A stretch of 64,000 bases of DNA from an uncultured Actinomycetota bacterium. GTDB taxonomy: Bacteria; Actinomycetota; Thermoleophilia; RBG-16-64-13. Where the stretch lies: the NCBI GenBank assembly GCA_963843515.1, contig CAWJKH010000009.1:7472-71471 (forward strand), read 5' to 3'. The position numbers and the translations under genes were made by a program. The notes under the pieces are model-generated. The model saw nothing but the letters and a program-made list of their open reading frames with translations. It was not told the DNA's origin and did not search any database. Positions 33,912 through 56,680 of this stretch are shown here, one piece after another; the stretch's first letter is position 1, and each line of letters begins with the position of its first letter.

Positions 33912-34023
33912 GCCCGCAAGTATAGCGGGAGCGGCGGGACCGGCGAGACCAGCCGACCGGCCGCGGTGGTGGGGGGACCTGTAGAATGTGGGGACCGCTG
34001 CAGGCAAGAAAGGGATCCCCTCG

Positions 34024-39571: not shown

Positions 39572-39696
39572 GACGGGTCCTCGGGAGTCGTCGGGCGGGG
39601 AGTCGCCGGCCCGGCGGGTGCCCCCGGCTCTGCCGGCGCGGCGGGCATCGCCGGCGCGGGGGCTCCGCAGGCGCGGCCGGCACCAGACCGGCGGTG

Positions 39697-40544: not shown

Positions 40545-40937
40545 TTGACGAAAGTCAACCACTTGACGGCCCTCCTGGTCTATCGTATTGACGGACGGCG
40601 CGATGCCCCACGGGAGGGGCGCGGTCGACATCAGAACGGGGGTGGCAACATAGACCGCCGGACTTTCATCTTCGCATCGGTGCTCTCGGCCTTGGCCCCC
40701 TTGGGCGCCGGCGTCGCTCGGAAATGGGAGGCGGCCGCGACCGCCGCGGCACCGACTGTGCGTCCGCAGGCTCAGGGCAACAGCTCGCTGGTTTGCGGGG
40801 GCTGCGGACAGCCCGGCCATAGCGCACTCGATCCCGGTTGCCCGGCTGTCTCGCGGCAAGCCTCGGCGGTCCAGGCGGCTGCGCGTCTGCGCGCCGCGGG
40901 AATGGGGGCGGCCGGTAGCGGGACGGCTGACTCGTGA
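40545..40937 (+). CDS. small Tat-signal protein with a Cys/His motif; start unresolved
   Basis: 'DRRTFIFASVLSALAPLGAGVA' looks like a Tat signal. 'CGGCGQPGHSALDPGC' follows. G+C at third codon positions is high after ~40650. An ATG at 40603 in another frame may be the true start if there is an indel. Confidence 0.35.
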   Translation: MTKVNHLTALLVYRIDGRRDAPREGRGRHQNGGGNIDRRTFIFASVLSALAPLGAGVARKWEAAATAAAPTVRPQAQGNSSLVCGGCGQPGHSALDPGCPAVSRQASAVQAAARLRAAGMGAAGSGTADS

Positions 40938-43619: not shown

Positions 43620-44325
43620 CAAGGTGTCACCCATCGATGCCCTGTCCCCAGCGTCTCGCGCCTACGGCGAGATCGGGCCGGTGTCGAACAATCCGCGGTG
43701 GGCCATGGTGGTCGATCAGGAACGCTGCATAGGCTGCTGGTCGTGCTGCGTCATCTGCAAGTCGGAGAACGATGTGCCCCTGGGCATGTGGTGGAACCGC
43801 ATCAACACCGTTGGCGACGCGCTCGATACCCCCTACCTGGAGCAGGGGAAGCTCGCCATGCACTGGCTGCCACTGGCCTGTCAGCACTGCGAGAACCCGG
43901 CGTGCACCAAGGTGTGCCCTGTGAAGGCCACGTACCCGCGCGAGGATGGCCTGGTGATGCAGGATTCAGAGCGGTGCATCGGCTGCCGCTACTGCCTGGT
44001 GGCGTGCCCGTATGGAGTGCGCACGTTCAACTGGGGACACGCGGAGCGGCCCACCGATTTCAACACCGGCATGGTGGCGCCAAGGCCCATCGGGACCATG
44101 GAGAAGTGCACATTCTGCGTCCACAGACTCCCCGACGGACAGATCCCCTCTTGTGTGTGGTCGTGCCCCGGCCAGGCCCGCATCTTCGGCGACCTCAACG
44201 ATCCTGACAGCCGGGTGAGCCGGCTCATCCGCGATCGGGGCGGCTACCAGTTGCTGGAGGAACGGGGCACCGACCCGTGCGTCCTCTACCTTCCTCCGCG
44301 CCGCAAGAGGGGGTTGGAGCCGTGA
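43612..44325 (+). CDS. 4Fe-4S ferredoxin-type electron-transfer subunit (PsrB/DmsB-like)
   Basis: Four Cys clusters: 'CIGCWSCCVICK', 'CQHCENPACTKVCP', 'CIGCRYCLVACP' and 'CTFCVHR'. Confidence 0.9.
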   Translation: MPDKVSPIDALSPASRAYGEIGPVSNNPRWAMVVDQERCIGCWSCCVICKSENDVPLGMWWNRINTVGDALDTPYLEQGKLAMHWLPLACQHCENPACTKVCPVKATYPREDGLVMQDSERCIGCRYCLVACPYGVRTFNWGHAERPTDFNTGMVAPRPIGTMEKCTFCVHRLPDGQIPSCVWSCPGQARIFGDLNDPDSRVSRLIRDRGGYQLLEERGTDPCVLYLPPRRKRGLEP

Positions 44326-45644
44326 GCAGCGCCCAACCCGTGCAAGCGGGCGCTTCAGGCGCTTCGGGCGCTCCCATGACGCCATCCGTCGCGGCTACCA
44401 CGGCCGGCGAAGGGCGCGGTCGCGCCCGGCTGATATGGGTGACGGTCATCTGCCTGGGGCTGGCCGCCGGAATCGGAGCCTGGATCTACCAGTTGTCCAA
44501 CGGGCTTGCCGTCACCAATATGCGGAACCCCACCATGTGGGGCCTCTACATCACCCTCTTCATGTTCTTCGTGGGTCTGTCGGCGGGCGGGCTGATCGTG
44601 GCTTCGGCCGGCCGGCTGTTCGGCGGAGTGCAGGTGAAGCCCATCGTCCGTCTCGCCGTGCTGGAGGCAACCGTCGCCGTCATGTTGGCGGCGCTGTTCC
44701 TGCTGCCCGACATGGGCCGACCGGACCGGCTGTGGCACCTCATCCGCTACCCGAACTTCACATCGCCGATGGTGTGGGACATCACCATCGTCATCATCTA
44801 CTTCATCATCTCGCTGCTCTACGTGTGGGTCTATACCCGCGCCGACAATGCCGAGCGCCGCAGCTGGTTGGCCTTCGGCACCGGCACCTCGCCGGCCGAC
44901 TACCAGCGCGACGAGCGCATGAAGACGGTGCTCGCGGCCATAGGGCTGCCCGCCGCGATCCTGCTCCATTCCATCACTGCCTGGATCTTCGGGCTGCAGA
45001 TCGGCCGCGCCTTCTGGTACACCGCTCTCATGGCGCCCCTGTTCATCACGTCGGCGCTAGTCTCGGGTACCGCCCTCATGATCCTACTGGCCCTCGTCGT
45101 GCGGGGGGTGGGCCGGATATCGTTCGGGTCCGACCTCGTGGCCTTCATGGCCAAGTTGCTGGCGATCTTTGTGGCCGTGGAAGTGTTTCTGGTGTTCTGC
45201 GAGATGCTGACCGCCGCCTACGCTGGCGCAGCATTCGAGGCGGACCCCATAGCCCGCCTGCTTACCGGTCGCTTCAGCCCCCTCTTCTGGTTCGAGATCG
45301 TCATTGGACTGCTGGTGCCGTTCGTACTGCTGGTCGTTCCGAAGTGGAGATTGCGGGCCAGCCTGGTGGCCATCGCCTCGGTCCTCGCCGTGATTGGCAT
45401 ATTCGCCCACCGGCTCAACATCATCCTCAACGGCCTCACCTTCGCCACCATCCCATATCCCCCCGGAGTCTCCATCGGGACGCCGCAACCTGCCGGGACG
45501 GACTCGTTCGCGTTGAGTCTCCCGTATCTACCCAGCTGGGTGGAGTGGCTGGTCGCTTTGGGCGTGCTCTGCTTCGGGGCCCTTGTCTTGACGGCTGCGG
45601 TCATCTGGCTTCCACTGCGAGAGAAGGCCCACTCGACAGACTGA
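44322..45644 (+). CDS. NrfD/PsrC-family polytopic membrane anchor subunit
   Basis: GTG at 44322 overlaps the preceding stop (GTGA). About ten TM helices. 'MWGLYITLFMFFVGLSAGG' is typical of NrfD. Confidence 0.8.
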   Translation: MSSAQPVQAGASGASGAPMTPSVAATTAGEGRGRARLIWVTVICLGLAAGIGAWIYQLSNGLAVTNMRNPTMWGLYITLFMFFVGLSAGGLIVASAGRLFGGVQVKPIVRLAVLEATVAVMLAALFLLPDMGRPDRLWHLIRYPNFTSPMVWDITIVIIYFIISLLYVWVYTRADNAERRSWLAFGTGTSPADYQRDERMKTVLAAIGLPAAILLHSITAWIFGLQIGRAFWYTALMAPLFITSALVSGTALMILLALVVRGVGRISFGSDLVAFMAKLLAIFVAVEVFLVFCEMLTAAYAGAAFEADPIARLLTGRFSPLFWFEIVIGLLVPFVLLVVPKWRLRASLVAIASVLAVIGIFAHRLNIILNGLTFATIPYPPGVSIGTPQPAGTDSFALSLPYLPSWVEWLVALGVLCFGALVLTAAVIWLPLREKAHSTD

Positions 45645-45810: not shown

Positions 45811-46565
45811 GTGAGGAAGCTCGAGACCGATCTGTCCATCCTGCGCAAGTTCGAGTTCGAGCACTCGCCCGTCGGCGTGAAGTTTCTCTTCAGCCGGCCT
45901 GAAGGCATCGAGAGGCTGGACAAGCCAGCCGCCATCTGCGAGATGATCCGGATAGCCCAGGAGAGAAGCGCGGCCTTCTATGTTTCCCAGAACGAGGAGG
46001 GTTGTTTCGGCACCGTCGTCTTGGGGATGCGAGACGCGCCCGTTTGGGCGGAGGCAGGCCTATTGGGCGAGAAGTTCGGTGTTTACGAGGAGCCCCGGGC
46101 CAACGAGCGGATATACCAGCATATGCCCGAAGCTTGAGAAGGGCACGGTGAACTACGCGGCTTTCGCCTCGCTGGACGCCCTCGATTTCGAGCCCGACCT
46201 GCTCATCCTGATGGCCACTCCCTCCCAAGCGGAGGTCGTGCTCCGGGCGATGAGCTACTCGACCGGCGAGCTGTGGGAGAGCAAGAAGACCCCGGTGCTG
46301 AGTTGCGCCTGGATCTTCGCCTACCCGTGGCTCACCGGGAAGGTCAACTACATGATCACCGGGATGGGCTTTGGATCGAAGGCCCGGGAGGCGCTGCCCG
46401 AGGGCTGGATGCTGATCTCCATCCCCTGGGACAAGATCCCGGTGATCATCACCGAGCCTGGAGAAGATGACGTGGGTCTTGCCGGCCTACACGGAGGGTC
46501 GGGAGAAGTTCATGGAGAGGGAGGCGCGGGTGAGAGAGGAAGCAGCCCGAGCGGCACCCGGATGA
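45811..46565 (+). pseudogene. DUF169-family protein, interrupted by two +1 frame changes (about 46129 and 46457)
   Basis: GTG follows GGGAGG. Segment 1 ends '...ERIYQHMP'. Segment 2 reads 'KLEKGTVNYAAFASL...PDLLILMATPSQAEVVLRA...IPVIITE'. Segment 3 reads 'LEKMTWVLPAYTEGREKFMEREARV...'. Each segment has high G+C at third codon positions only in its own frame. Confidence 0.7.
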
Positions 46566-46606
46566 GGCTCTAGCTGTGCAAGAGTCACTACCAGGGGGAA
46601 GGCACT

Positions 46607-48944
46607 ATGCGTGTGACGCGAACTAACCTGTTCCTTGCCGCCGCGGCCGCCGCACTCCTCGCTCTTGCACAGCCAGCCTTCGCAGACACTTCCACAACCC
46701 TGCCCGCAACTCCGTGGATCACGCAGCCCTCAGACAGTGCGGACACGGTGGTCGAGCCCAACCCGGACCCCGGCACCTCCGAGCGGAAATCGGCCGATGC
46801 AAGGTTCCCAGTACTATTCGCAGACGATGTCAAGCCACAGGACGTGATTACCCTCGATCTGCTCGGCATTTCGCTGGCGGCCGGGGACGACACTAAGAAA
46901 GTTGTGCCTCTGGACTACGGTGCCTTCGCTCTATCTGCCAGCACCGGCGGGCAGCTCACAGTTGACGCGGCCTACCGGGCGGAAGTCGTGGTTACGATAG
47001 CGTTCTCCGCGATTCAGTCTCCCGGGACCTACACTTTGAATCTGCGCGCCTCGGCCCCCTCGTCCTCGCAACTGCCTCCCCAGACGATTGCGGTGCAGGT
47101 TATCATCCCCTCAGCAGCTGCGACCGTCCCGTCTGACTTTAGAATTGTGCATGCCCGTCCCTTCTGGGGTTTCTTGGGAGGGACAAAGGACGAGGACCTG
47201 CCGGCCTTGACCATTCGCGAAACAACCGGCAAGGCCCCGATAGTTTCCCCGCAGCTCGAGCACGGCGCCTTCCTAGACCCCAATGGCAAGCCGGTCGACG
47301 GCGATGTTGAGGTGGGCGAGGTGACGGCAGTCAACAGTGGTAGCGAGACATCAGCATCCATCAAGTCTGTGATGGACTTCCCCCTCGGGACTGCCAGCGC
47401 CATCGTCACGATGCAGGCCGCCGAGTTGTCTGCCCTTCAACAATTCAAGATCCAGGTTCTCGAGCGAAATTCCCGGATATGGATCTTCTTCATGACCTTC
47501 CTCGGGGTGATTGCTGGGCTGACCGTCAGGTCCGTCCTCGGGCCTTTGATCGATCTTAATAAGGCGAAGGAGGGCCCGGATCGCTTGACGAAGGAAATAA
47601 AGACGCGAGTGGGTAATGACCCGCTGATTAGTGAGAGATTGAATGACATAATCGTTACCTTGAACGGCGAAAACGAAGTCCTCATAAACGAAGTCAGTAC
47701 CAGGAGCCAGGCCTCAGGAACATCCCAATGGCTCCACAAGATGCGCCTCAGGAAGCTCGCGATCTTTGTCTACGAGGCTGGAAATGCTCAGCCGCTCACC
47801 GAACGCTGGCAGAACGCGGTCGGTGCCGCCCAGACGCGGGCCAATGCACTGCTCGAGTATCAGTATGGACGTCTGGACACGGCTAGGGCAGGATTGATTG
47901 GTCTCCAGCGGGCCATGAACACATTGCAGAACCGCGGAACTGGCCTTCCGAAGCCAGATCAGACAGTGCTGGGCGCTTTGCGGAAGCGACTGCCCACATA
48001 CCTCGTACTGAGCAACGTCGGAGAGGCTTTGAAGCAAGAAGACGAGATCGCCTGGGAACTCGCCGACTACATTTACGCAACGGTACGCTCTCCCCTGGCA
48101 GTCTATCCTGGGAAGGCTCCTCCGCCAGATAGCGGACCAGGGAGGCCTTCCCGCGTTCCAGCAGGACGAAATCGATGCGACTTTGAAGTCATGGCCAAGC
48201 GTTGTCCCACCCATATCGGAGGCAGACCAAAGCGCATTGATAACAAATGCCTTGGACAACCTTGGTGTCGTCGCGCGAACCGTGAGTTGGGTAGGGCATT
48301 TGGAGGGCGAACTAATAGCGGTGGCAGACACAGTGAGGGACATGCTGGTTGAAAAGGGTGCCAGCAGCGACGCGCTCACGGAACTCATCAATCGTGTCAA
48401 TTCGTACACTGACGGGCTCTCAGCGGCGGTGCCGGACCCCGACGGCCCAGCTGCGGACCAAGCCCTCAGTCTAGCGCGCGACCTGCTCCAGAACTGGACA
48501 ATGGTGCTCGATGACGGCACACCAAGGACAAGAGATAACCTCACTAGTCACAAGTACGTGGAAGCGGCGCGAACCTTTGTGAAGCCTGGCATCGCGGCTT
48601 TTTCGCCCCAGAGCTACGACTCACTGCCCGCGCTAATGCCGATAACCAAGGGCATGGTGGTCTCGGAGGAAACTTGGAGGCCGTCTCTGATCATCCCTGT
48701 CGTGCCCAAGAGTCATGAGCGAATCACCCGGACCGCTCGAGAAAACCGACCTGTTCTCACACTCTACAAGGCCCTATGGATGGCCATTCTCGTGGGTCTG
48801 ATCTTCCTGGCGATTTGGGTGCTCCGAGTGGACACATTTGTCGGAACTCCCGCGGAGTTGATACTCATCTTTCTTGGCGCCTTCGCAATCGATTTGAGCA
48901 CCTACAAGGTGCCCGAGTTCTTCGGCTCAGTCCTTCGCATTTGA
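46607..48944 (+). pseudogene. large (~780 aa) secreted/membrane hypothetical protein, +1 frame change near 48083
   Basis: Signal peptide 'AAAAALLALAQPAFA|DT'. ~270-aa extracytoplasmic region, TM 'IWIFFMTFLGVIAGL', ~400-aa helical region, and two C-terminal TMs. Frame 2 reads to '...ADYIYAT', then frame 0 reads 'YALPWQSILGRLLRQIADQ...'. G+C is lower than in neighbouring genes. Confidence 0.6.
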
Positions 48945-50421
48945 CATGTCTTGAATGGGACCGCAATACGCCCCCGCCGACGAGTGTGAGTTCTACCTAA
49001 TCCAAGCCTAGCCGCGTCCCCGACCGCGCCGGCCGAGGCCTCGATCCCGGGCCTCGATGCGTAGTGGTTGCTCGCCATTGTCGCCGCTCTGACCGTGGCC
49101 CTTACCTCAGAAGAGCTGACGAGGGGAGTCTCGAATTGGCCCAACTGGGTGAAGAGCTCCGGGCATCGTTGGATGCTCTTCGCCCCCATGAGCCCGTAGG
49201 CGAGGCCATCAAAGGCGGCCGCGGAGATCCCCTCCCTGGGGTGTATTGGTTCGGTCCTTTCCAGAAGAGTGCCGGGTAGCGGACAGAGCGTCGACATCTG
49301 GCTCCCTGCACCTCGGCGCAATAGAGACACGTGTAGGTTATAGGTCTCTCTGACGTCGCACGACGTCTCCCAGGGGAAGCCGACGATCAGCGACACGTGG
49401 ACCTGGAATCCCTTGGCGAGCGCATGCTCGAGCATGGCCAGCGACCGATCGAGATCGATTCTCTTTCCGATCTTGTTCAGGGTGCCCTGGGAGGCGCTCT
49501 CGAGGCCCACAAAGATACTCCGGCACCGGCCTTTCCAAAGTACGTCCAAGTCCTCGGCCCGCAGGTGGCTCAGGGTCAGGCTGCAGCCCCAGGTGAGACT
49601 GTCTTGAGCTTCTTGGGCCAGCTGCCCGCAGAGGTCGAGAAGCCAGCGCCGAGAGTTCGCGAGGTTATCACCGATCAGCGAGACGAATGTGAGATCGGTG
49701 AGATCCCGGAGCCGACGGATCTCCTCAAGCACCCTGCCGGTCGATTTCCGACGGACCTTCCTACCCCAATAGACGCTTGTTGAACAGAACGAGCAGCGAC
49801 CCGCACACCCCCGTTCAGCCTCAAGGGGTATCTCTGACCGATCATATTCGGAACAGCTGAGGCTCGCCGCGAAGTCGGGAGCATCGCCGATACAGGGAAG
49901 GTTGTCGAGGTTCGGCTCCGGCTCGCGAGGGACGAAAGGCCGCTCCCTCGTGGCGATGCCCGGAAGGCCGGCTTCGGAACGACTTGCAACCCACTCCGGC
50001 CGCATCAAGAGGTCTCTGAGGGTCCCTTCTGCCTCACCCACGAATACCGCCTCGATCTCCGGGTAGCTTGCCAACGCCGCCTCTGGGTGTACGGAAACAT
50101 GTGGTCCGCCCATCCAGATGCGCAGACGGGGGTGGCGGCGTTTCAGCTCCTGACGAGCCCGATGGAATGGTGGAAGGAACTGCACATCGTGGAAAGACCT
50201 ACGGCCGTGTATCTCTCACCCCGGACGAGGTCCGCGACGCCGCGCACGAGCTCGTCCGAACTCGAAAAGACCTGGCCGGTCAGGGTGTGGAGTTGCAGGA
50301 GGTCAATTGACCCCGAGCATCCCTTTGCGGCGGCCTGCACGGATAGCAGGCCGTAAGGGACGTAGGTCACTATCCGATCCTGGTCGACGAACGGCGCTGG
50401 GACAAGAAGGAGTCTAGACAC
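48902..50421 (-). pseudogene. B12-binding-domain radical SAM protein, -1 frame change near 50150
   Basis: The N-terminal Rossmann-like part 'LLLVPAPF...YGLLSVQAAAKG...VGLSTMCSSFHHSIGLVR' (ORF 50143-50421) continues as 'ELKRRHPRLRIWMGGPHVSVHPE...EAERGCAGRCSFCSTSVYWG' (ORF 48902-50185). Confidence 0.75.
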
Positions 50422-50478
50422 TTGCGGCGGGAGGGCTTGGGCAAGGTTTCACCGGTGCTTGTGGCTCTGCATCGGCGA

Positions 50479-50706
50479 CTATGCGACGCCGGGGCTCTTG
50501 AACGGCTTGGGTACGCGGTACGGTATATTTGCCGCCGCTAAGGCGGCTGACAACTCATCGAACGTCGCGGAGTACATCATGGCGGTGGGCGTGTCGAAGC
50601 CCGCCGCATTCAGCTTTTCCTCCATATCTTCCAAGAAAGCTATGAGCTTGTCTGGATGGTCCACAAATGCCGCCACAATGGGACCGGCATCAAATTCCTC
50701 GGCCAT
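50479..50706 (-). CDS. small acidic protein/peptide (75 aa) immediately upstream of the radical SAM gene
   Basis: ATG at 50706 follows AAAGGGGAG. 'MAEEFDAGPIVAAFVDHPDKLIAFLEDMEEKLNAAGFD...NIPYRVPKPFKSPGVA'. It has an acidic helical N-terminus and a basic Pro-rich C-terminus. Confidence 0.6.
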   Translation of the reverse strand: MAEEFDAGPIVAAFVDHPDKLIAFLEDMEEKLNAAGFDTPTAMMYSATFDELSAALAAANIPYRVPKPFKSPGVA

Positions 50707-50803
50707 AAGTCTCCCCTTTCCGATTCGGGTTCGTACAACAGAGGGTCTTGCAGCAGCAAGCCCTCCCGCCGCCAAGGAAATCAGCCTACTTCGTCGCCCC
50801 GAT

Positions 50804-53800
50804 CTATCCGGCCCCAGGTTCCGCCGACTGGACCGCCGCCGCAGATCTCTCCTCCCACTTCCTCTTCATCTGGACGATCCGCGGGTGATCGGCGCCGCCG
50901 ATATCGGCCATCAATGTGACCGCATTCTCGAAGTCCTCTTCGGCCTCCATCCAACGCGCCTGCTGCCGCCTGAGGTGTGCTCTGCGAAGGCAGAGCTCCG
51001 CGCAGAAGGGATGGTGAGGCGAGAACCTCTCGCTCACCACAGCCTCACTCCGCTCGAGGAAAGCCTCCGCGAGATCCAACCTCCCGCGCGTCATCTCGAC
51101 ACCCGCCAAGGTCCACAGGGCGACCGCTTGACAGTGGTCGACCACTGTCGCCTCCATCCGGCGAAGTACGCTCAGGACAGTCTCCTCCGCCTTGTCAATC
51201 TTGCCTGCCTGCAGTTGCGTCTCGGCCAGAACGGTTAGTGCTTCGAACAGGTGGCGGGGCTCCGCGCCCTCCTCAAGAACCCCAACAGCGTACGCGAGAT
51301 GCTCTTCGGCCTCCAGATACGCCCCCTGGGCGAAGCGAACTTCCGCCAGGTGACGGGCCGCCGAAGCCTTGAGGTAGGGATTGACTATGCCGTCCACGCA
51401 TTCCTGGGCCTGCACCGCCGCCTCCTCCCACCTCCCGTCGACCACGTTCACGGAGGAAAGGTTGATGAGCAGCATCCAGCCTCTCTGCGTACCTTTGAGA
51501 TCGAACCTCCGCAGCGCTTCTTCTATCACCTGTCTCATCTCATCGTGCCGCCCAAGAAAGAAAAGGTTCGTGCTCAGGTAGATATTCAGATCCTGCAGCA
51601 CGCCCGCATCGCCGGACGTCTTGGCTTCCTCAAGAGCGAGTGCTCGACGAAAGACTTCCTCGGACTCGAAGAACCTGTCGTTGTTGAGAAAGCACAGCCC
51701 GAGGATCAGAAGGAGGCGGGTCAGCGACGGGTCGTCATCGCGTCCGGACGCGTCCAGCGATCTTATTGCGCGTTCTGCCAGGTGGATGCATGCGTCGTGC
51801 GCCCCTCGCTGAAAGTGGCAGCCGGCAAGCACGGCCGTGGCAGCCATCGTGCGCGGATCCGTCGGTCCGCAAGCCTTCAAAACCTTGTCGTAGAACACCT
51901 GGGCCGAATCGAGAAGCTCCCCCCCGGATCGTGCCAGCCAGAAGGGTTCGGTTGCCGTGACGAACCATTTGACCTGGCTGTGAGAGTCAGTAGACTCCGA
52001 AGTCTCATCAAACGCTTGCAGCAGTGCCGACATGGCATCGCGGTAGTAGGCGACTGCCTCGGCATCTGCAGCCATGCTCACCGACTGGTCGCCCGCCTTG
52101 AGAAGATAGCTCTGAGCGTTCTGCCAATCCTCAGCTCTGGTGTAGTGATAGGCAAGAATGCCGTACAGGTCCCTTATCTGGCCTGAGTACAGCTCCTCGA
52201 TGGCACGAGCGACCCGACGATGCAGTTCCCGACGCTGCTTGAGAAGTAGCGTGCCGTATGCCGCCTCCTGTACGAGGGCGTGCTTGAATGCATACTCCGG
52301 TTCAGGCTCCAGACGTTTGAGAAAGATGAGCTGGTGGTCCTGTAGCGAGCGCAGGTTTTCGCCGAGCTCCGGCTCGGTCGAGGCAGACAGCGACCGCAGA
52401 AGCCGGCGAAAGAAGCTTCGCCCGATGACGGAGGCGCAGAGCAAGTCCTGCCGCGTTGACTCTGCGAGACGGTCGATACGGGCCGAGATCACGCCCTGAA
52501 CTGTCGATGGTATGGAAAGTTCGCCCTCGATCGTCGCCGTCCATCTTCCGCCCTCGTCCCGTTGGAGCATGGCCAGGTCGATGAGGTGGCGGATGATCTC
52601 CTCGACAAAGAACGGGTTGCCCTCGGAACGGGTCCGGATGGTGCGCATCACTCTGGGCTCGATCTCGCTGCCCCTTAGCAGCTTGGACACGAGCTGTTCC
52701 GTGTATCTCTGCGACAGTGGGCTGAGCTGAATGTGGACGCACTGCGAACCAGCATGGCGACGTGCAGCCTCGAGCAACTCAAGCGTGATCGAATCCGTCC
52801 CAGCTCGTCCTACCAGGCAGATGAGTACTGGTGCCTGCGCCGCGAGTGGGAGCAGGTTCTCGATAAGTGCGGCCGATGACCGGTCGAGCCAGTGAACATC
52901 CTCAAAAGCAAGGATCAGGGGCTTCTCAGTGCTGAGCCTGCGGGCGTAGCGCTGCGCTCGGTCGACGACGATCCTCCGAACGCCCTCCTCCTCCGCCACC
53001 AGAGGCTCGTACTCGCCGAACTGACCCCTGGCAATACCGAGAAGACTGCCCAACACCGGAAGAAAGTCGTCCGCCTTGTCCGCGAACAGCCGCGTGGCCC
53101 GTTCGCGCAGTTTGCGCTCCTTCTCTTCGGCCGAGTCCCCTAGCTCGATGCCGCAGTCCGCCTGCACGATCTCGCGGAACGGAAGGTAACTGATGTTCTG
53201 CCCGTAGGAGAGCGTCCTGGCCTCCAGCCACTTGAGACCGCGGCTCGCGGCTTCACGGCGCACCTCGGCCGTGAGACGAGATTTGCCGACCCCGGCATCG
53301 CCCGTGACGAGGACAACGCAGCCCAGTCCTTCGTCCAATCGGTCTAGAGACGCTCGGAACAGTGCCATCTGCTCGTCTCGCCCCACGAGAGCCGACTCGA
53401 TGCCGCGTCCACCCCGGACCGAAGTCTGGCCGGACTCGACGTTGTTGATCCGCTGATAGGAGAGTTCCCCGGGTCTCCCGCGGATCTTCATCTCCCCGGC
53501 AGGCTCAGCGTCCACGAACCCACCCACCAGCTTGAGCGTCTCCGGGCCCACCAGCACTTCGCCGGGACCCGCTGCATTGGCCAGACATGAAGCGTCATCG
53601 ACGGACTGGCCTATGACTGAGTAGTCGTGAACCCCGTTTCCGAGAGAGCCGGCGATGACCATCCCGGTGTTGATACCGATATGCACCGAGAGGCCCTCTA
53701 CACCTTTCTCGGCTCCGAACTCCGACACCGCATCACGGATGTCCATCGCCGCCCGCACGGCCATCTCCGCATCATTGTCGTGAGCCACAGGAGCGCCGAA

Positions 53801-54739
53801 CAAGGCGATGAAGGTATCCGGTCCCTTGCGTTCGACCCGGCCACCGTAGCGTTCGACGCAAGGAATGATGCAGTCGAAGAGCGCGCCTGCAAGCCCGTGC
53901 AGCGACTCGAAACCAAGTGTCTCGGCCAGGGTGGTGAGACCACCGATGTGGGCGAGAAGGACTGCCACCAGGCGGCGCTCGTCGGCCGTCCTGATGGCCG
54001 CCGCGCATGAGGCGGCGGAGGCGGCGGTCCCCAGGGCCCCCTGCCCATTCCCCGCGGCCGGGAGGGTCCCGGCCTCGTTACCAGTCTCCGTCGTCACTTC
54101 CGAAGGCGCCATCGCGGCCGCCGGCGCCACCAGCTTGTACCCCACGTTCCGTACGGTCTCAATTAATCCGCAGCCGGGCGCCACGGCCTCGAGCTTCTTC
54201 CGCAGGTTGCCCATGTGCACGGTCACGACCCGCGGATCGCCAAACTCGTAGCCCCATACCTGCTCGAGCAGTTCCTGGCGGCTATAGACCCAGCCGGGAT
54301 GGCGGGCGAGATGGCACAGCAGTTCGAACTCCCGGGCGGTGAGGTCCAGGGAGGAGTCCCCGATCCTGGCCTCATGGCCCGCGAAATCGATGGTCAGCGG
54401 CCCCACCACCAGTTGCGGCGCCTCCCGCTCGGCCGAGTCCGGCTTGCCGAGGACCTTTTCAACCTCCGCGAGCAGCGAATCCGGTCCGGACCAAACGCTG
54501 ATAAGCGGGATGGTGTGCGCCTCCGCGAGCACAGCGAGGCTGTCGGCGGCTGTCGGCGTGAGTAGGCGCGGGTCGGCGACGATCACCGCCGGATGGGAGC
54601 GCTGCACCGTCCGCATCGCCGAGGAGGGGGAGTCGGCTGACAGCACGGGGTATCCGGCTCCCAGCAGGATCCTCCGCAGCGGGTCTTGAGGGTCTCGCCG
54701 AGCCACGATCAGAATCTGTGCAGACGGGGTGACGGCCAC
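50804..54739 (-). CDS. 1311-aa multidomain signal-transduction protein: receiver-like + OmpR/PhoB-type winged helix + degenerate class III cyclase-like + P-loop STAND/AAA ATPase + TPR repeats
   Basis: GTG follows GGGAGG. wHTH 'LTAREFELLCHLARHPGWVYSRQELLEQVWG...VTVHMGNLRKKLE...VGYKL'. Cyclase-like 'RRLVAVLLAHIGGLT...IALFGAPVAHDNDAEMAVRAA...HIGINTGMVIAG'. Walker A 'GDAGVGKSRL'. A long TPR-like C-terminus. Confidence 0.85.
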   Translation of the reverse strand: MAVTPSAQILIVARRDPQDPLRRILLGAGYPVLSADSPSSAMRTVQRSHPAVIVADPRLLTPTAADSLAVLAEAHTIPLISVWSGPDSLLAEVEKVLGKPDSAEREAPQLVVGPLTIDFAGHEARIGDSSLDLTAREFELLCHLARHPGWVYSRQELLEQVWGYEFGDPRVVTVHMGNLRKKLEAVAPGCGLIETVRNVGYKLVAPAAAMAPSEVTTETGNEAGTLPAAGNGQGALGTAASAASCAAAIRTADERRLVAVLLAHIGGLTTLAETLGFESLHGLAGALFDCIIPCVERYGGRVERKGPDTFIALFGAPVAHDNDAEMAVRAAMDIRDAVSEFGAEKGVEGLSVHIGINTGMVIAGSLGNGVHDYSVIGQSVDDASCLANAAGPGEVLVGPETLKLVGGFVDAEPAGEMKIRGRPGELSYQRINNVESGQTSVRGGRGIESALVGRDEQMALFRASLDRLDEGLGCVVLVTGDAGVGKSRLTAEVRREAASRGLKWLEARTLSYGQNISYLPFREIVQADCGIELGDSAEEKERKLRERATRLFADKADDFLPVLGSLLGIARGQFGEYEPLVAEEEGVRRIVVDRAQRYARRLSTEKPLILAFEDVHWLDRSSAALIENLLPLAAQAPVLICLVGRAGTDSITLELLEAARRHAGSQCVHIQLSPLSQRYTEQLVSKLLRGSEIEPRVMRTIRTRSEGNPFFVEEIIRHLIDLAMLQRDEGGRWTATIEGELSIPSTVQGVISARIDRLAESTRQDLLCASVIGRSFFRRLLRSLSASTEPELGENLRSLQDHQLIFLKRLEPEPEYAFKHALVQEAAYGTLLLKQRRELHRRVARAIEELYSGQIRDLYGILAYHYTRAEDWQNAQSYLLKAGDQSVSMAADAEAVAYYRDAMSALLQAFDETSESTDSHSQVKWFVTATEPFWLARSGGELLDSAQVFYDKVLKACGPTDPRTMAATAVLAGCHFQRGAHDACIHLAERAIRSLDASGRDDDPSLTRLLLILGLCFLNNDRFFESEEVFRRALALEEAKTSGDAGVLQDLNIYLSTNLFFLGRHDEMRQVIEEALRRFDLKGTQRGWMLLINLSSVNVVDGRWEEAAVQAQECVDGIVNPYLKASAARHLAEVRFAQGAYLEAEEHLAYAVGVLEEGAEPRHLFEALTVLAETQLQAGKIDKAEETVLSVLRRMEATVVDHCQAVALWTLAGVEMTRGRLDLAEAFLERSEAVVSERFSPHHPFCAELCLRRAHLRRQQARWMEAEEDFENAVTLMADIGGADHPRIVQMKRKWEERSAAAVQSAEPGAG

Positions 54740-55041
54740 TGGACCTCCCGAAACAGCACACCTGTACCGCGGAACGAAAGCAACCGCGCCGGTTCTCTAT
54801 GTCGATATTAGGGCAACCGAGCCCCCAGCGCGAGAGGGTCTGAGCGCCGTGAACAAGGGCCGCATGATTGATCGTGAGCGGCGGCGGTGGTTTCGGGGAG
54901 CCCGCGGCGGTCGCAAAGACGCCCGACCGTCTCTGAACACCGCCTGTTTGCTTTTCGAGTTCTTTACCTCTGCTTTGCTTCCCCTTGACCCCCCTCTCCG
55001 AAACTGTAGACGTGAGACAAGGCTTCAGTGGAGGAGGAACC

Positions 55042-55245
55042 ATGAATCCGCAACTGACAATGACAAGGGTCGTCAGGCCAGGCACTCAGTTCTTCTTTGC
55101 CGCCCAGGCGACCTCACGGACGATCAGGCGCGAGCGGCCTACCGCCGGCGTCGCGCCCGCCATGGTCGACGCCACCGCGGTGGACGCCCGCGAGCGTGAC
55201 AGGCAGGAGGCCCTGACGTTTCTGCACCGCCTGGTCATGGGCTGA
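55042..55245 (+). CDS. small ORF P1 (67 aa), paralog of P3
   Basis: ATG lies 5 nt after GGAGGAGG. 'MNPQLTMTRVV...ERDRQEALTFLHRLVMG*'. G+C at third codon positions is high. Confidence 0.5.
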   Translation: MNPQLTMTRVVRPGTQFFFAAQATSRTIRRERPTAGVAPAMVDATAVDARERDRQEALTFLHRLVMG

Positions 55246-55276
55246 GTCGGCCGTCGATGGAAGAAGGAGGCAAACG

Positions 55277-55520
55277 ATGAACGAGATCGCGGCCTTCATG
55301 GTCATCTCGCTCATGACGCGGAGCCGGGTTGGATGGGACGAACGGATGCACCGGTACCCCCTGGCGACCGAACCGGAGCCGAGCGATGGCACCGCGGTGT
55401 GCCGGCTCGGAAAGGCGGCGGGGATGGCCCCCTTGGGCGCCCGCACCCTTCCCGCAACGGGCGTGGCGAGAGCTCCTGCTGAAGCCCCTGGCGGCGAATA
55501 GGCCCTTTGAGGAGGAGTGA
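55277..55520 (+). pseudogene. small ORF P2 (~80 aa), apparent +1 frame change near 55469; its stop overlaps the P3 start
   Basis: ATG follows AAGGAGG. Hydrophobic N-terminus 'MNEIAAFMVISLM'. G+C at third codon positions collapses after ~55468 in the starting frame. It stays high in the +1 frame, which ends in TGA at 55518-55520 and overlaps the P3 ATG (GTGATG). Confidence 0.4.
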
Positions 55521-55724
55521 TGAACCCGCACATGACATTGACCGACGCGGTACGTTGTCGAAGAGCGGTTCGCGGTCGAGGACCACCTTGCACCTCCGAC
55601 GGCTGCCGGGAAAGCCCCGGACCTGCCCGCGGATGCCGGCGAGGCCATCCAGGACCCCACAGATCCGACCGAGCGCAGCCGGCAGGACTCGCTGGACTTC
55701 CTGCGCCGGCTGGTGATGGGGTAG
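55520..55724 (+). pseudogene. small ORF P3 (~68 aa), paralog of P1, apparent +1 frame change near 55550
   Basis: ATG follows GAGGAGGAG. 'MNPHMTLTDA' in the starting frame. The C-terminus homologous to P1, '...ERSRQDSLDFLRRLVMG*', is in the +1 frame. Confidence 0.45.
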
Positions 55725-55897
55725 GTACACCGTGATCGGTGTCGATGCCCGAGGCCGATCCGGTCCCCTCCGGGATCGCCCGGGCTGGTGACGACGGGGC
55801 CCAAGGCTGCCCTGACGCCTGGGGCCCGTCTCGGTCGGCGCCGGCAGCGCCGGCCGCGGCTGTGGTGGGCCGCGCCGGCGCTGCCGCACCTGCTTTC

Positions 55898-56680
55898 TTA
55901 CTCCTTGGTCTCCGGCTCGGCCTCCGAGCCCTCCGGCAGCGCGACGCTGTTGGCGATGATGGCGCCTTTGTCCGTGATCACGCCGATCTCCATCGCGGCG
56001 CCTTCCGCGGTCGCAGCCGCAACCTGGTAGACCACTCCCTCGGCGGTCGCGACGATCACACCGGCGGCGACGGCCTCGTCGGTTATGACGGCAGTGACCA
56101 CTTCGGCAGTCTCCTCATTGGCGGATATCTCCTGGATGGCCAGACCGTCGGCGGCCAGGATGATACCCACGGCCACGTTCTTGTTCTCGGCCAGCCGCGC
56201 CGAGATCTCGTCGGCCAGCCCGGCGACGATGCCGCGGGTGGCCTCGATGTCCACCTGCTGCTGCACGGCTTTGAGGAACTCGTGGCTGGTGATCATGGCG
56301 ATGGCCGACGTCCCCGGCTTGAGCGCCGACCCGATCTTGTCCAGGCTCTCGTTGCGGAACCCTTTGTCGCGCGAGGCGATAGCGCCACCGGCTGCCGCGC
56401 CGAGGGCCGCGCCCGCGGCGATGCCGGCCGGACCGCCAAGGATGCCCAGGATGCCGCCCACCAGCGCCCCTGCACCGGCCCCTCGGCCCGCGGACATGTC
56501 GCCGGTCTCGAAGTAGTGGACCTTGCCCTGGGCGTCCTGCCGAATGACCCCGGCGTCTTCGAAGTAAAACTGGCCCTGCTGCTTGGCCGCGTTCATGGCC
56601 TTCAGGGCCTCTTCGGCCGCCCCCTCATCGGTGAACGCTGCCACCAGGAAACCTACAGCGGGAATGCCTTCTTGTGCCAT
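55898..56680 (-). CDS. DUF1269-family membrane protein
   Basis: 'VAAFTDEGAAEEALKAM...EDAGVIRQDAQGKVHY', followed by the Gly/Ala-rich segment 'GAGAGALVGGILGILGGPAGIAAGAALGAAAGG'. Confidence 0.7.
   Translation of the reverse strand: MAQEGIPAVGFLVAAFTDEGAAEEALKAMNAAKQQGQFYFEDAGVIRQDAQGKVHYFETGDMSAGRGAGAGALVGGILGILGGPAGIAAGAALGAAAGGAIASRDKGFRNESLDKIGSALKPGTSAIAMITSHEFLKAVQQQVDIEATRGIVAGLADEISARLAENKNVAVGIILAADGLAIQEISANEETAEVVTAVITDEAVAAGVIVATAEGVVYQVAAATAEGAAMEIGVITDKGAIIANSVALPEGSEAEPETKE

Follow-up and report, generated by a model that had tools for sequence, protein, structure and literature searches.

A conserved regulator–peptide–radical SAM cassette in an uncultured actinomycetote is a candidate peptide-maturation system

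Results

Genes and features of the locus

The window analyzed here is a stretch of 64,000 nucleotides (64 kb) from an uncultured Actinomycetota bacterium, and all coordinates refer to it. The locus contains the following genes and features.

45811..46553, plus strand: DUF169 gene (Pfam DUF169), conserved left flank
46607..48944, plus strand: 779-aa membrane protein, convergent with the radical SAM gene, one frameshift repaired
48902..50421 (open frame), minus strand: class-B (cobalamin-binding) radical SAM enzyme (rSAM), ~465-490 aa; PF04055, 63 bits, and PF02310, 33 bits
50424..50439, minus strand: 3' arm of an RNA helix, CAAGCCCUCCCGCCGC, ending 2 nt before the rSAM GTG start
50479..50706, minus strand: 75-aa acidic small protein, putative precursor peptide, with homologs upstream of rSAM genes
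50757..50772, minus strand: 5' arm of the helix, GCGGCGGGAGGGCUUG on the mRNA, between the regulator and peptide genes, about 50 nt before the peptide start codon
50804..54739, minus strand: 1311-aa STAND regulator (Pfam Trans_reg_C, Guanylate_cyc, AAA_16, TPR)
~50840-52042, minus strand: TPR repeats of the regulator (Pfam)
52820-53389, minus strand: AAA_16 NTPase of the regulator (Pfam)
53456-53971, minus strand: class III cyclase-homology domain of the regulator, catalytic residues substituted (Pfam)
54131-54352, minus strand: OmpR-type wHTH of the regulator (Pfam)
54440-54739, minus strand: degenerate receiver-like N-terminus of the regulator (12 bits)
55042..55245, plus strand: small ORF1, 67 aa, MNPQ...FLHRLVMG, divergent from the regulator, with homologs in L001, L002 and L003
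55277..55501, plus strand: small ORF2, called at 74 aa, Shine-Dalgarno (SD) sequence GAAGGAGG
55520..55724, plus strand: small ORF3, paralog of ORF1, MNPHMTLT...DSLDFLRRLVMG, recognized by three-frame translation and an HMM match of 92 bits
55898..56680, minus strand: DUF1269 gene (Pfam), conserved right flank

All five components that a preliminary description of this DNA had listed are present: a membrane protein of ~780 aa, a B12-type radical SAM enzyme, an acidic 75-aa peptide upstream of it, a 1311-aa multidomain protein, and three small divergent ORFs, each with a GGAGG-type ribosome-binding site. Three same-strand genes make up the conserved core, i.e., those for the STAND protein (50804-54739), the peptide (50479-50706) and the rSAM (~49030-50421).

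The peptide and the radical SAM enzyme

The 75-aa peptide has a net charge of −7, and its ATG is preceded by the SD sequence AAGGGGAG. In the AF2 model, it is predicted to consist of a three-helix N-terminal domain (residues 8-57; helical pLDDT about 90) and an 18-residue C-terminal tail, AANIPYRVPKPFKSPGVA, that is basic and disordered (pLDDT below 50-67). The peptide has no match in Pfam or NCBIfam and no curated family in Pfam, NCBIfam or PADLOC; a family search gave 33 clusters, and all those named by their source are called "hypothetical protein." Homologous peptides of 62-78 aa lie on the same strand, 3-170 nt upstream of the rSAM gene, in 11 of the 13 loci read (HMM E-values 1e-19 to 6e-24, plus alignments); next to the rSAM family members at L086 and L005, no adjoining peptide was detected. 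Each clade has its own conserved C-terminus (xGF/KPF, VTGI, IVWI).

The B12-binding and radical SAM domains of the enzyme are both recognized by Pfam, and C209-x3-C213-x2-C216 is invariant across 38 homologs. The gene is read in two frames, from 50421 to ~50160 and from ~50160 downwards, with a frameshift at a GGG run within 50154-50165, and is otherwise intact. Because the mapped ends of its homologs lie near 49030-49050, the open frame probably runs ~40-45 codons past the native end. The search returned 118 matches, and about 90 protein clusters are close (33-66% identity); this clade has no Pfam, NCBIfam or PADLOC family of its own. Scores to every named family are far below the cut-offs, the best in NCBIfam being ApyD with 129 bits against a cut-off of 750, in a match that spans only positions 27-392 of 645. 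The nearest characterized relatives include ApyD, a Tyr C-beta methylase of a RiPP, and QCMT/MgmA, the MCR glutamine C-methyltransferase, which is also the best PDB match (9CCB); the RiPP C-methyltransferases of TIGR03975 are likewise among the best named relatives. No RRE is recognizable in the enzyme.

The STAND regulator

The 1311-aa protein has the wHTH, cyclase-like, STAND and TPR parts described for it previously, while the receiver part is faint, scoring 12 bits against a cut-off of 30. In an alignment to the CyaB structure, the cyclase catalytic residues are replaced (metal Asp to His, Asn to Asp, Arg to Cys). The same degeneration is found in L002 and L003, the canonical residues are kept in L165 and L166, and the domain is degenerate only where the wHTH is fused. 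Orthologs of the regulator adjoin the peptide–rSAM pair in L001-L003 and in a diverged metagenome (JGI) contig, and analogous cyclase- or kinase-STAND-TPR genes do so in L165, L166, L006 and L085; overall, 9 of the 13 loci read have such a neighbor.

A long-range helix brackets the peptide ORF

The two helix arms form a perfect 16-nt inverted repeat on either side of the peptide ORF. The 3' arm ends 2 nt before the GTG start of the rSAM and thus takes the place of its SD region. The helix is present in both the MFE and the centroid fold (z = −3.5). Its position is kept in L002 (12 of 12 pairs) and in L001 (13 of 14 plus one G.U), with three compensatory pairs, so that three sequences in total support it; in both relatives, the rSAM start codon consistent with the family follows this arm after 5-6 nt. 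The motif has no other occurrence within the 64-kb window and no match in Rfam.

Small ORFs, membrane protein and flanking genes

ORF1 is preceded by a promoter-like TTGACC (54985-54990) and the SD sequence GGAGGAGGA (55030-55038). Blocks of this intergenic region, the −35-like box and the SD sequence are conserved across L001, L002 and L003; ORF1 has no Pfam match. The conserved part of ORF2 is its first ~30 residues, MNEIAAFMVISLMTRSRVGWD..., which are homologous to a 56-aa gene of L001 (5174-5344); the JGI contig has a 57-aa gene at this position. ORF3 is broken by one frameshift near 55543.

The membrane protein is predicted to comprise a signal peptide, an Ig-like beta-rich ectodomain (~46-288), a TM helix (~291-313), a long helical region to ~659 and two C-terminal TM helices. 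Ig-like domains were the only Foldseek matches of its AF2 model, and Pfam, NCBIfam and PADLOC gave none. This protein had been described as an orphan; however, it has 144 distant homologs of 600-800 aa at E ≤ 1e-3, with motifs common along the full length. The best of these, P0176, fills the same slot in the JGI contig, and two other family members lie in unrelated contexts. The protein is absent from L001-L003.

On the left, the DUF169 gene occupies three frames, implying two frameshifts (74-94% identity to the L002 ortholog by tblastn, spread over frames 1, 2 and 3); L001, L002 and the JGI contig have it in a syntenic position. The DUF1269 protein on the right is 61% identical to the DUF1269 protein flanking the same region in L001.

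Conservation of the cassette

At least four related genomes carry the locus at one and the same chromosomal position. One lineage with wider synteny (adh_short, ERG4, DUF169) comprises L001-L003 and the JGI contig; the gene content of the slot between rSAM and DUF169 changes from relative to relative. The full five-part layout, with the membrane protein (~780 aa) and all three small ORFs, was found in one contig, the JGI contig, from its gene table; the rSAM there agrees in length with P0024, a 45%-identical search match. In all, the 11 peptide–rSAM loci span several phyla (Bauldia, Nitrospiraceae, Vibrio and a Dehalococcoidia-type contig; some are labelled Alphaproteobacteria, Nitrospiraceae or Vibrio), and the pair, mostly with a STAND gene, occurs in L165, L166, L085, L006, L007 and L167 without other shared synteny. 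The trio of regulator, peptide and rSAM recurs in related and distant genomes. In Vibrio and Bauldia, peptidase genes (Trypsin_2 and S8, respectively) lie beside the pair, and the Vibrio copy sits between integrase genes. The window locus contains neither an exporter nor a leader peptidase gene. Searches of phage contig and plasmid collections gave no family members, and the composition is not described in the curated libraries or literature searched, in line with the earlier remark that no described system has it.

Base composition and frame changes

The previously noted drop in G+C is borne out by windowed counts. In 1-kb windows, G+C is 57-58% at 47-49 kb and 61-63% at 49-53 kb against 63-70% in the rest of the window; in 500-nt windows, it is 55-59% at 47-49 kb and 65.9 ± 2.7% (sd) elsewhere, the two lowest values of the whole 64 kb (55.4%) lying at 47251 and 48501. 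The minimum coincides with the gene for the 779-aa membrane protein. The three 60-nt counts first given for the region (46.7, 41.7 and 50.0%) are exact, and 5 of the 10 60-nt lines with ≤50% G+C fall between 46.8 and 52.0 kb. The dip ends on the right near 53.7 kb and not, as first delimited, at 55.7 kb. Third codon positions are indeed less G+C-biased, with a GC3 of 0.67-0.76 for the genes of the region vs. 0.82-0.85 for their right-hand neighbors ORF1 and DUF1269; GC3 is also low in the orthologous loci L001 and L002.

The previously noted frame changes are confirmed: five fall between 45.8 and 55.7 kb, in the DUF169 (two), membrane protein and rSAM genes and additionally in small ORF3. Those in the membrane protein gene (C4 run around 48093-48096) and the rSAM gene (G3 run) are single-base changes in short homopolymers. 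Because housekeeping-type genes outside the region (adh_short, DUF6141, molybdopterin oxidoreductase) are also affected, and because the L001 and L002 regulators likewise have frame breaks or splits, the frameshifts look like assembly errors. Of the two causes first proposed, decay or poor assembly, we favor the second. No tRNA, integrase, transposase or flanking direct repeats were found around the locus. In relatives, it occupies this same place, with DUF169 and DUF1269/PASTA as neighbors. Given this synteny and the lack of mobility genes, the earlier notion of an island in the sense of a recent insertion is not supported. We read the low-G+C stretch as a conserved cassette, neither recently acquired nor decaying.

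Discussion

Several lines of evidence support the idea, raised in the preliminary description, of a regulated peptide-modification locus, i.e., the recurring trio, the three-helix-plus-tail model of the peptide and the rSAM relatives that methylate peptides or proteins. We suggest, with a probability of about 0.6, that the core is a conserved three-gene cassette for regulated, RiPP-like post-translational modification of a small ribosomal peptide, in which the neighboring B12-dependent radical enzyme most likely modifies the 75-residue peptide. The peptide would consist of a folded "leader" of three helices and a floppy 18-residue tail; the enzyme would bind the peptide and modify the tail. 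The likeliest chemistry would be C-methylation, with an unactivated carbon as its target, at the conserved small-residue-Phe position or close to it (in the peptide of the window, KPF), although class-B enzymes catalyze non-methylation reactions as well, as discussed in PMC10635010.

The STAND protein may be the pathway-specific switch, with its TPR/AAA_16 module sensing a ligand, possibly the peptide product itself, and then oligomerizing. Since the cyclase domain lacks catalytic residues, the output in this lineage would be DNA binding via the OmpR-type wHTH, while in other lineages the same cassette appears to be paired with STAND proteins bearing an intact cyclase or Ser/Thr kinase. By enclosing the peptide ORF and burying the translation-initiation region of the rSAM, the long-range mRNA helix could hold the enzyme at low levels compared with the precursor, or it could delimit a stable precursor mRNA; alternatively, the inverted repeat may have a role at the DNA level. 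The divergent small-ORF operon (two MNP...LVMG paralogs and a short hydrophobic peptide) and the convergent Ig-domain membrane protein would be lineage-specific accessories.

The small protein might instead be an obligate partner or adaptor of the rSAM, much as MpcC/DUF5825 is for MpcB, or act like a stand-alone recognition element, with something else as true substrate, in this lineage perhaps the MNP...LVMG peptides or a non-peptide metabolite. MpcBC sets an example of a B12-rSAM dependent on a second protein (PMC10849626). The predicted confident fold over about 50 residues, the conserved length, the lack of an RRE-like extension in the rSAM (see the partial ApyD match), and, beside the regulator, the two small paralogs, whose ribosome-binding sites are strong and whose C-terminus is conserved, all fit such a role. 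We nevertheless consider it unlikely: MNP...LVMG peptides were found in the lineage of the window only, whereas the three-helix protein is seen with the rSAM in different phyla and is the sole small gene directly upstream of it in the Vibrio and Nitrospiraceae loci, where the HMM detected no MNP...LVMG-type peptide, and its disordered, clade-specific tail resembles a core peptide. A STAND-based sensing or defense module (Avs/Pycsar-like), in which the NTPase detects an invader, rSAM and membrane protein are effectors, and the small protein is a regulator or antitoxin-like component, is improbable. Its appeal lies in the NTPase with TPR sensor architecture and cyclase domain, in PADLOC matches of the regulator to PycC (E = 7e-5) and of the rSAM to PDC-M51A (E = 2e-7), in the integrase genes flanking the Vibrio copy and in a 259-aa gene of L165, about 5 kb downstream of the rSAM, that matches Anti-Pycsar_Apyc1 and a metallo-beta-lactamase Pfam. 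However, these PADLOC matches are weak and generic, so that the STAND-sensor module proposed earlier gains little from them if understood as defense; the cyclase appears catalytically degenerate from its sequence and shares its protein with a DNA-binding wHTH; and the locus is chromosomal, syntenic and without mobility genes in this lineage, with no relatives in the phage contig or plasmid collections. Moreover, an enzyme paired with a variable-tailed small peptide is typical of RiPP loci.

It is slightly less probable still that the locus is a horizontally acquired island of foreign, low-G+C DNA whose frameshifts mark functionless pseudogenes. The dip in G+C and GC3 is real, five frame changes lie here, and the slot beside DUF169 varies; yet the position is shared by at least four related genomes, GC3 is depressed in L001 and L002 too, hallmarks of insertion are missing, the 1311-aa ORF is intact, and the breaks in the membrane protein and rSAM genes lie in homopolymers, with others in genes outside the region and in the regulators of L001 and L002. 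The least probable of these explanations is that all five components are unrelated neighbors held together by general co-linearity of a conserved chromosome segment. The closest loci do belong to one lineage with wider shared synteny, and the membrane-protein family is found in unrelated contexts elsewhere, so that the membrane protein and the small ORFs are possibly just neighbors; for the core trio, this explanation is largely refuted by its recurrence in different phyla without other synteny. Altogether, these findings favor a cassette for regulated peptide modification and make it a candidate new peptide-maturation system.

Results

A conserved peptide-radical SAM gene pair next to a STAND gene

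All five components that the preliminary description had listed for this region, i.e., a membrane protein, a radical SAM enzyme, a 75-aa peptide, a 1311-aa protein, and three small ORFs, are present. With one frameshift repaired per gene as needed, these genes and their immediate neighbors are as follows:

45811-46553, + strand: DUF169 gene, left flank, spread over three frames
46607-48944, + strand: 779-aa membrane protein (orfA)
48902-50421, − strand: B12-binding radical SAM enzyme (rSAM)
50479-50706, − strand: 75-aa peptide, net charge −7
50804-54739, − strand: 1311-aa protein (the regulator), intact ORF
55042-55724, + strand: three small ORFs (ORF1 to ORF3), each preceded by a GGAGG-type ribosome-binding site
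55898-56680, − strand: DUF1269 gene (Pfam), right flank

A search with the repaired rSAM returned 118 hits, and ∼90 of these (protein clusters) form a closely related clade with 33 to 66% identity that extends over several phyla. In pattern scans based on the rSAM alignment, generic class-B rSAMs overwhelmed the output, and just four true family loci were recovered from the genome scan and two from the metagenome scan; no members of the clade were present in the plasmid and viral collections. Among the 13 distinct loci of the clade that we read, 11 have a homologous gene for a peptide of 62 to 78 aa located 3 to 170 nt upstream of the rSAM gene and on the same strand, i.e., the window, L001, L002, L003, L165, L166, the JGI contig, L085, L006 (Bauldia), L007 (Nitrospiraceae), and L167 (Vibrio parahaemolyticus), while a peptide gene was undetected at L086 and L005. 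The locus thus has the organization of RiPP loci, in which a small precursor gene is adjacent to, and co-oriented with, the gene for a modifying enzyme across genomes. Moreover, a STAND gene encoding AAA_16/TPR together with a cyclase, kinase, or wHTH domain adjoins the pair in 9/13 loci. Co-occurrence elsewhere, proposed earlier as a check, is therefore borne out for both parts. The suggestion of a regulated peptide-modification locus gains from the conserved pairing and the adjacent STAND gene, and we regard the locus as a candidate RiPP-like system.

The surroundings of the pair vary. No leader peptidase or exporter genes were detected at the window locus with Pfam and NCBIfam, and such genes are found at other loci: an S8 peptidase in Bauldia, where it accompanies a cyclase-STAND-TPR gene; MFS transporters in L001 and L003; and EamA on the JGI contig. 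In V. parahaemolyticus (L167 236-7029; GCA_045006955.1), the intact peptide-rSAM pair (WP_140204986.1 and the 63-aa gene upstream of it) precedes a Trypsin_2 peptidase, and the cassette is flanked by two phage-integrase-family genes close to the contig end and may sit on a mobile element. On L085, a Dehalococcoidia-type contig, the neighbor is a Pkinase-AAA_16-TPR gene. SnoaL-like genes lie 3' of the rSAM gene in L165 (9771-11425 and 14542-15321; three in tandem) and L166 (5495-5917), and both loci contain several further wHTH-AAA_16 or cyclase-AAA_16 genes. L165 also has, ∼5 kb 3' of the rSAM gene, a 259-aa gene matching the Anti-Pycsar_Apyc1 and metallo-beta-lactamase Pfam families.

The peptide has a possible leader/core organization

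The peptide family comprises 33 clusters, all source-named members of which are called "hypothetical protein," and has no Pfam or NCBIfam model. An AlphaFold2 model built with 23 homologs predicts a three-helix bundle for residues 8 to 57 with a pLDDT of about 90 and a disordered tail for residues 58 to 75; Foldseek found no match to this model in the PDB. The pattern of the helical domain is kept across phyla, whereas the basic C-terminal tail is conserved inside clades and differs between them. In relatives of the window peptide, the tail ends in a small residue and Phe (KPF, GGF, KGF, KNF, KAF, RQF), an ending also seen in Bauldia and Nitrospiraceae (AGF, KSF); tails of the Dehalococcoidia type end in VTGI and those of the Vibrio type in IVWI or IIWF. 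No cleavage motif was identified in the peptide. Based on the model, the peptide looks like a precursor in which a folded leader would precede a short core. The helical DPxLL...AAGV pattern raised the possibility of Nif11/NHLP membership; none of 10 peptides matched the corresponding Pfam/NCBIfam models, even at E ≤ 5. An in-frame TTG upstream (50775) was also rejected as the start of the peptide gene, as the aligned region of L001 and L002 contains frame-breaking indels.

The rSAM belongs to a new branch of class-B enzymes

The radical SAM core of the window enzyme is recognized by PF04055 (63.4 bits; cut-off 29.5), and 38 homologs all retain the CxxxCxxC cysteines C209, C213, and C216. A B12-binding domain is predicted by PF02310 (33.1 bits on the frameshifted fragment; cut-off 32.1), a match that is precomputed for nearly every full-length homolog. 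Clade members are ∼465 to 490 aa and have no recognizable RRE; the window ORF stops ∼40 to 45 codons beyond the ends of its homologs. The best NCBIfam matches, i.e., ApyD, MJ_1487, HpnJ, the MCR glutamine C-methyltransferase, and TIGR03975, all score far under their cut-offs, and the clade therefore represents a new branch of class-B rSAMs. Existing annotations of the clade are generic or, in many JGI records, [quoted passage not shown] (BchE) or "YgiQ." Because the clade scores 60 bits against a BchE cut-off of 481, these names are over-annotations.

The regulator combines a wHTH with a substituted cyclase domain

The 1311-aa protein matches AAA_16 (89 bits; cut-off 33), TPR_12 (83 bits; cut-off 30), and Trans_reg_C (87 bits; cut-off 26) and thus has the AAA_16 NTPase, the following TPR, and the fused DNA-binding domain of MalT/AfsR/SARP-like STAND proteins. 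The ∼100 N-terminal residues, previously called receiver-like, are faintly so: PF00072 scores 12.4 bits against a cut-off of 30.2, and IVARRD occupies the place expected for the receiver acidic pair, leaving the wHTH as the one half of an OmpR-family response regulator that is present. The cyclase-homology fold is well supported (PF00211, 52.8 bits, cut-off 21.9; CyaB structure 3r5g, E = 3.5e-15), while the residue set of a catalytically active class III cyclase is absent from the window protein. Compared to Pseudomonas aeruginosa CyaB, the domain (53456-53971) has His for the first metal-binding Asp, Arg for Lys, Asp for Asn, and Cys for Arg. Across the window, L002, and L003, the first Asp is replaced by His or Tyr, the substrate Lys by Arg, and the transition-state Asn by Asp or Glu; the transition-state Arg is Cys in the window and L002. 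By contrast, L165 and L166 have STAND proteins without a wHTH, in which all canonical cyclase residues are kept. That the substitutions are confined to the wHTH-fused orthologs suggests that output has moved from cNMP synthesis to DNA binding, and in the window lineage the regulator appears to act through predicted DNA binding by its fused OmpR-type wHTH and not by cNMP synthesis. An apparent lack of the cyclase domain in the L001 regulator was ruled out by tblastn, which identified a full-length, frameshifted ortholog.

A predicted long-range RNA helix ends just before the rSAM start codon

The peptide gene is enclosed by a perfect 16-nt inverted repeat (50757-50772 / 50424-50439, − strand). 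L002 has a counterpart at the same position (12/12; 4461-4472 / 4781-4792) and so does L001 (13/14; 9740-9753 / 10063-10076), where the lone mismatch is a G.U on the sense strand. When the three sequences are aligned, pairing of the helix amounts to 95% compared to 43 to 55% for slid controls, and three pairs show compensatory changes. In folds of the 368-nt transcript segment, the helix is the closing stem of both the MFE and the centroid structures (z = −3.5). Its 3' arm stops 2 to 6 nt (2 nt in the window) short of the family-consistent rSAM start codon at each of the three loci, and no Shine-Dalgarno sequence of its own was found in the rSAM start region. We suggest that the helix could limit translation of the rSAM relative to the precursor or, alternatively, define a stable precursor mRNA. 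Given that three sequences carry it, the inverted repeat may conceivably have a role at the DNA level instead. The idea that the repeat arms are a shared operator was set aside for now, because neither the divergent promoter region nor any other part of the window contains the motif. Rfam 15 covariance models, including that of the cobalamin riboswitch, gave no matches at E ≤ 1 between 45.5 and 57 kb, and scans for promoters and terminators by consensus gave a chance-level result.

Accessory and flanking genes

The three divergent small ORFs are real genes. ORF1 (55042-55245) and ORF3 (55520-55724) are paralogs of ∼67 aa with the pattern MNPxxTxT...RQxSLxFLxRLVMG. This family, duplicated in the window, occurs beside the regulator or rSAM gene in all four sequenced loci of the lineage (L002 65-271, L003 11471-11680, and L001 5344-5595, each on the − strand), and conservation in L001 extends to the N-terminus of ORF2. 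A TTGACC box (54985-54990) and a strong SD are preserved in the divergent intergenic region of three loci.

The membrane protein is not the orphan that it was taken for, as an exhaustive phmmer search returned 144 homologs at E ≤ 1e-3. These are mostly 600 to 800 aa, with common motifs in the ectodomain and onward into the C-terminal FVGTxxELxxIFFWAF helices; a further protein search with the alignment returned the query alone. The AlphaFold2 model (pLDDT 72) has a signal helix, Ig-like beta domains, a TM helix, a long helical region, and a C-terminal TM hairpin, and Foldseek matched the Ig-like domains alone, with TM-scores ≤0.2. The best homolog, P0176 (28% identity, E = 6e-32), is encoded on the JGI contig, the layout of which is that of the window: adh_short, DUF169, the membrane protein (737 aa), an rSAM of 471 aa, a 71-aa peptide, a 1307-aa wHTH-cyclase-AAA_16-TPR regulator, three small ORFs (67, 57, and 74 aa), EamA, and PASTA. 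The rSAM of this contig, matched by length and contig size to the homolog P0024, is only 45% identical to that of the window, and the five-part arrangement is therefore old within the lineage. Two further relatives of the membrane protein occur in unrelated contexts, one beside a heme peroxidase and peptidases and one among housekeeping genes, and in L001 to L003 the membrane-protein slot is filled by different small genes. For these reasons, we consider the membrane protein a lineage-specific neighbor whose relation to the cassette is uncertain. At L168 (6606-10346; JGI 3300061211), a 781-aa homolog is encoded directly 3' of an animal-heme-peroxidase-family gene, close to a trypsin-like peptidase, two S8 peptidases, and small ORFs of 82 and 92 aa; this may be another peptide-related context for the family.

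The flanks differ in detail between loci. In the window, a Psr/Nrf-like operon (40931-45644) encoding a TAT-signal molybdopterin oxidoreductase, a 4Fe-4S subunit, and an NrfD membrane subunit sits between adh_short and DUF169, which directly adjoin each other in L002. L001 (2325-3821) has an MFS transporter and another B12-binding radical SAM gene, unrelated to the first, between PASTA/DUF1269 and the regulator; both are absent from the window, where the small-ORF operon alone fills that space.

The locus is probably neither a recent island nor decaying

The region had been described as a low-G+C island of ∼9 kb at 46590-55730. The drop in G+C is real: against a background of 65.9% (sd 2.7%; 500-nt windows), G+C is 55 to 59% at 47.0 to 48.9 kb and 59 to 63% up to about 53.5 kb, and the lowest two 500-nt windows of the entire 64 kb fall in this dip. 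The three earlier counts on 60-nt lines were reproduced exactly (46.7, 41.7, and 50.0%), and 5/10 of the 60-nt lines with ≤50% G+C lie within 46.8 to 52.0 kb. Third codon positions are likewise less G+C-biased, as proposed, with a GC3 of 0.67 to 0.76 in the dip genes compared to 0.82 to 0.85 in ORF1/DUF1269 immediately to the right. The interval itself holds for its left and central parts; because the dip ends at ∼53.7 kb, the right-hand 2 kb are compositionally normal. Thus, deviant composition speaks for an island, but the region lacks signatures of mobility, with no flanking direct repeats, no integrase or transposase domains at the locus (Pfam), and no tRNA at its boundary (the sole tRNA of the window is at 10.3 kb), and its synteny extends to L001, L002, L003, and the JGI contig. 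The GC3 depression is common to L001 and L002 and is not seen in L003.

Decay had been considered on the basis of frame changes in genes at the edges of the region. Those in orfA (48093-48096) and the rSAM gene (50157-50160) are single-base changes in a C4 run and a G3 run, respectively, and another lies near 55543 in ORF3. Frame changes extend to genes beyond the dip, including the conserved housekeeping-type genes DUF6141 (33439-33923), adh_short (39672-40500), and DUF169 (45811-46553) as well as the molybdopterin oxidoreductase, which is frameshifted between 40931-42604 and 42237-43619. The regulator genes of related loci are affected as well: that of L001 (5788-9657) is spread over several frames and that of L002 (508-4408) is split into two called genes. 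The records of L001 and L002 are both titled "contig_NNN." This distribution points to the kind of indel error common in long-read metagenome assemblies, and assembly error is the simplest explanation for the frameshifts. Altogether, the locus is probably neither a recent island nor a product of decay.

Discussion

In our model, the locus would function in the manner of a RiPP cluster under a pathway-specific STAND regulator. In agreement with the preliminary description, its composition matches none of the named families tested, as it falls below the membership thresholds of ApyD, TIGR03975, TIGR03903, Nif11/NHLP, and PADLOC systems. PADLOC-DB v2 gave weak generic matches only (PDC-M51A, 28 bits, for the rSAM; PycC, 20 bits, for the cyclase domain) and none for the peptide and the membrane protein, and our literature search found no paper that describes the cassette.

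Characterized relatives nevertheless allow comparisons. In proteusin and Nif11-NHLP systems of the PoyB/C type, a leader domain of >50 aa is followed by a short core that is modified by a cobalamin rSAM. The leader of the window peptide has a similar helical DPxLLxxL...AAGVxLT flavor; however, the window rSAM scores 72.6 bits against TIGR03975 (RiPP C-methyltransferase; cut-off 281.85), and the locus has no epimerase, dehydratase, or other proteusin gene. [quoted passage not shown] Its substrate, as would be the case for a tail ending in Phe, is an aromatic residue near the C-terminus of a ribosomal peptide from the same cluster. However, the score of 129.5 bits is far from the equivalog cut-off of 750 and covers profile positions 27 to 392 of 645 alone; ApyD is a 645-aa protein with an RRE; the MNIO, P450, and methyltransferase genes of the apy cluster are absent from the window locus; and the precursor families are unrelated. 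In the clavusporin (mpc) cluster, the 39-aa precursor MpcA, a short ribosomal peptide, is C-methylated by the cobalamin rSAM MpcB encoded directly 3', together with the DUF5825 protein MpcC; mpc clusters are widespread, yet were long overlooked, and are found in Actinobacteria only (PMC10849626). Unlike the window locus, mpc needs DUF5825, contains an S9 peptidase and a transporter, and has no STAND regulator. By analogy, the mpc and apy clusters may be regarded as functional analogues of the cassette with different parts. The closest solved structure by sequence is that of QCMT/MgmA (PDB 9CCB, E = 4.5e-32; TIGR04014, the fourth-best NCBIfam match), a class-B rSAM of comparable size (450 aa). 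It adds a methyl group to an sp3 carbon of a protein, i.e., to a glutamine of methyl-coenzyme M reductase. This enzyme differs in that it is archaeal, acts on a large folded enzyme subunit, and has no adjacent small-peptide gene, and the window rSAM scores 81 bits against TIGR04014, well under the cut-off of 360. Judging from these nearest characterized relatives, C-methylation of the peptide tail is the most economical prediction.

For the regulator, the best NCBIfam match is the TOMM kinase/cyclase fusion TIGR03903 (E = 9e-83 in the cyclase-AAA-TPR region), a protein with cyclase-homology, NTPase, and repeat regions encoded beside a RiPP cluster; the kinase-AAA_16-TPR neighbor in L085 is of the same type. 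TIGR03903 is a precedent for such proteins beside RiPP genes. The 1311-aa protein itself scores 278.8 bits over positions 254 to 1053 (cut-off 705.75), has no Pkinase match, and, unlike TIGR03903, adds an OmpR-type wHTH and a degenerate receiver-like N-terminus and has substituted cyclase residues. The gene order is also reminiscent of streptococcal Rgg/SHP "RaS-RiPPs" and RRNPP cassettes, in which the gene for a TPR transcription factor is followed by genes for a small peptide and a radical SAM maturase. This likeness suggests that the window TPR domain could sense the peptide product. However, Rgg/RRNPP receptors are HTH-TPR proteins of ∼300 aa without an NTPase, their rSAMs are of the SPASM and not the cobalamin type, and, to our knowledge, these systems are restricted to Firmicutes.

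Taken together, these elements can be combined in a wider joint reading, which we consider doubtful in its entirety. In it, an unnamed, widespread class of three-helix-bundle precursors with a short C-terminal core would give rise to ribosomal peptide natural products or cofactors. The core would be altered by the new cobalamin radical SAM clade, with chemistry possibly beyond simple methylation. A STAND ATPase dedicated to the system would use its TPR to detect the mature peptide in an ATP-gated autoinduction outside Firmicutes, with an output interchangeable by lineage between cyclic nucleotide, phosphorylation, and direct DNA binding. Finally, the long-range mRNA helix would hide the ribosome-binding site of the rSAM gene and thereby set the precursor-to-enzyme ratio.

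Even under the ordinary reading alone, the interpretation of the region as an island with an orphan gene and decay is corrected. The cassette is a clean candidate enzyme-substrate pair with an unusual regulator and RNA feature. By masking the start region of the rSAM gene, the long-range helix could offer a simple means of setting the precursor-to-enzyme ratio. One conserved cassette, in which the STAND output domain has been swapped in different lineages among a presumably active cyclase, a kinase, and a wHTH fused to a presumably dead cyclase, provides a natural experiment on the rewiring of STAND regulators. Cobalamin-dependent radical SAM enzymes catalyze some of the hardest C-H functionalizations known, and few have defined peptide substrates. 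The locus pairs a compact (∼470 aa), RRE-less clade of these enzymes with an obvious candidate substrate in a pairing that is open to co-expression, and the clade includes a culturable host, V. parahaemolyticus.
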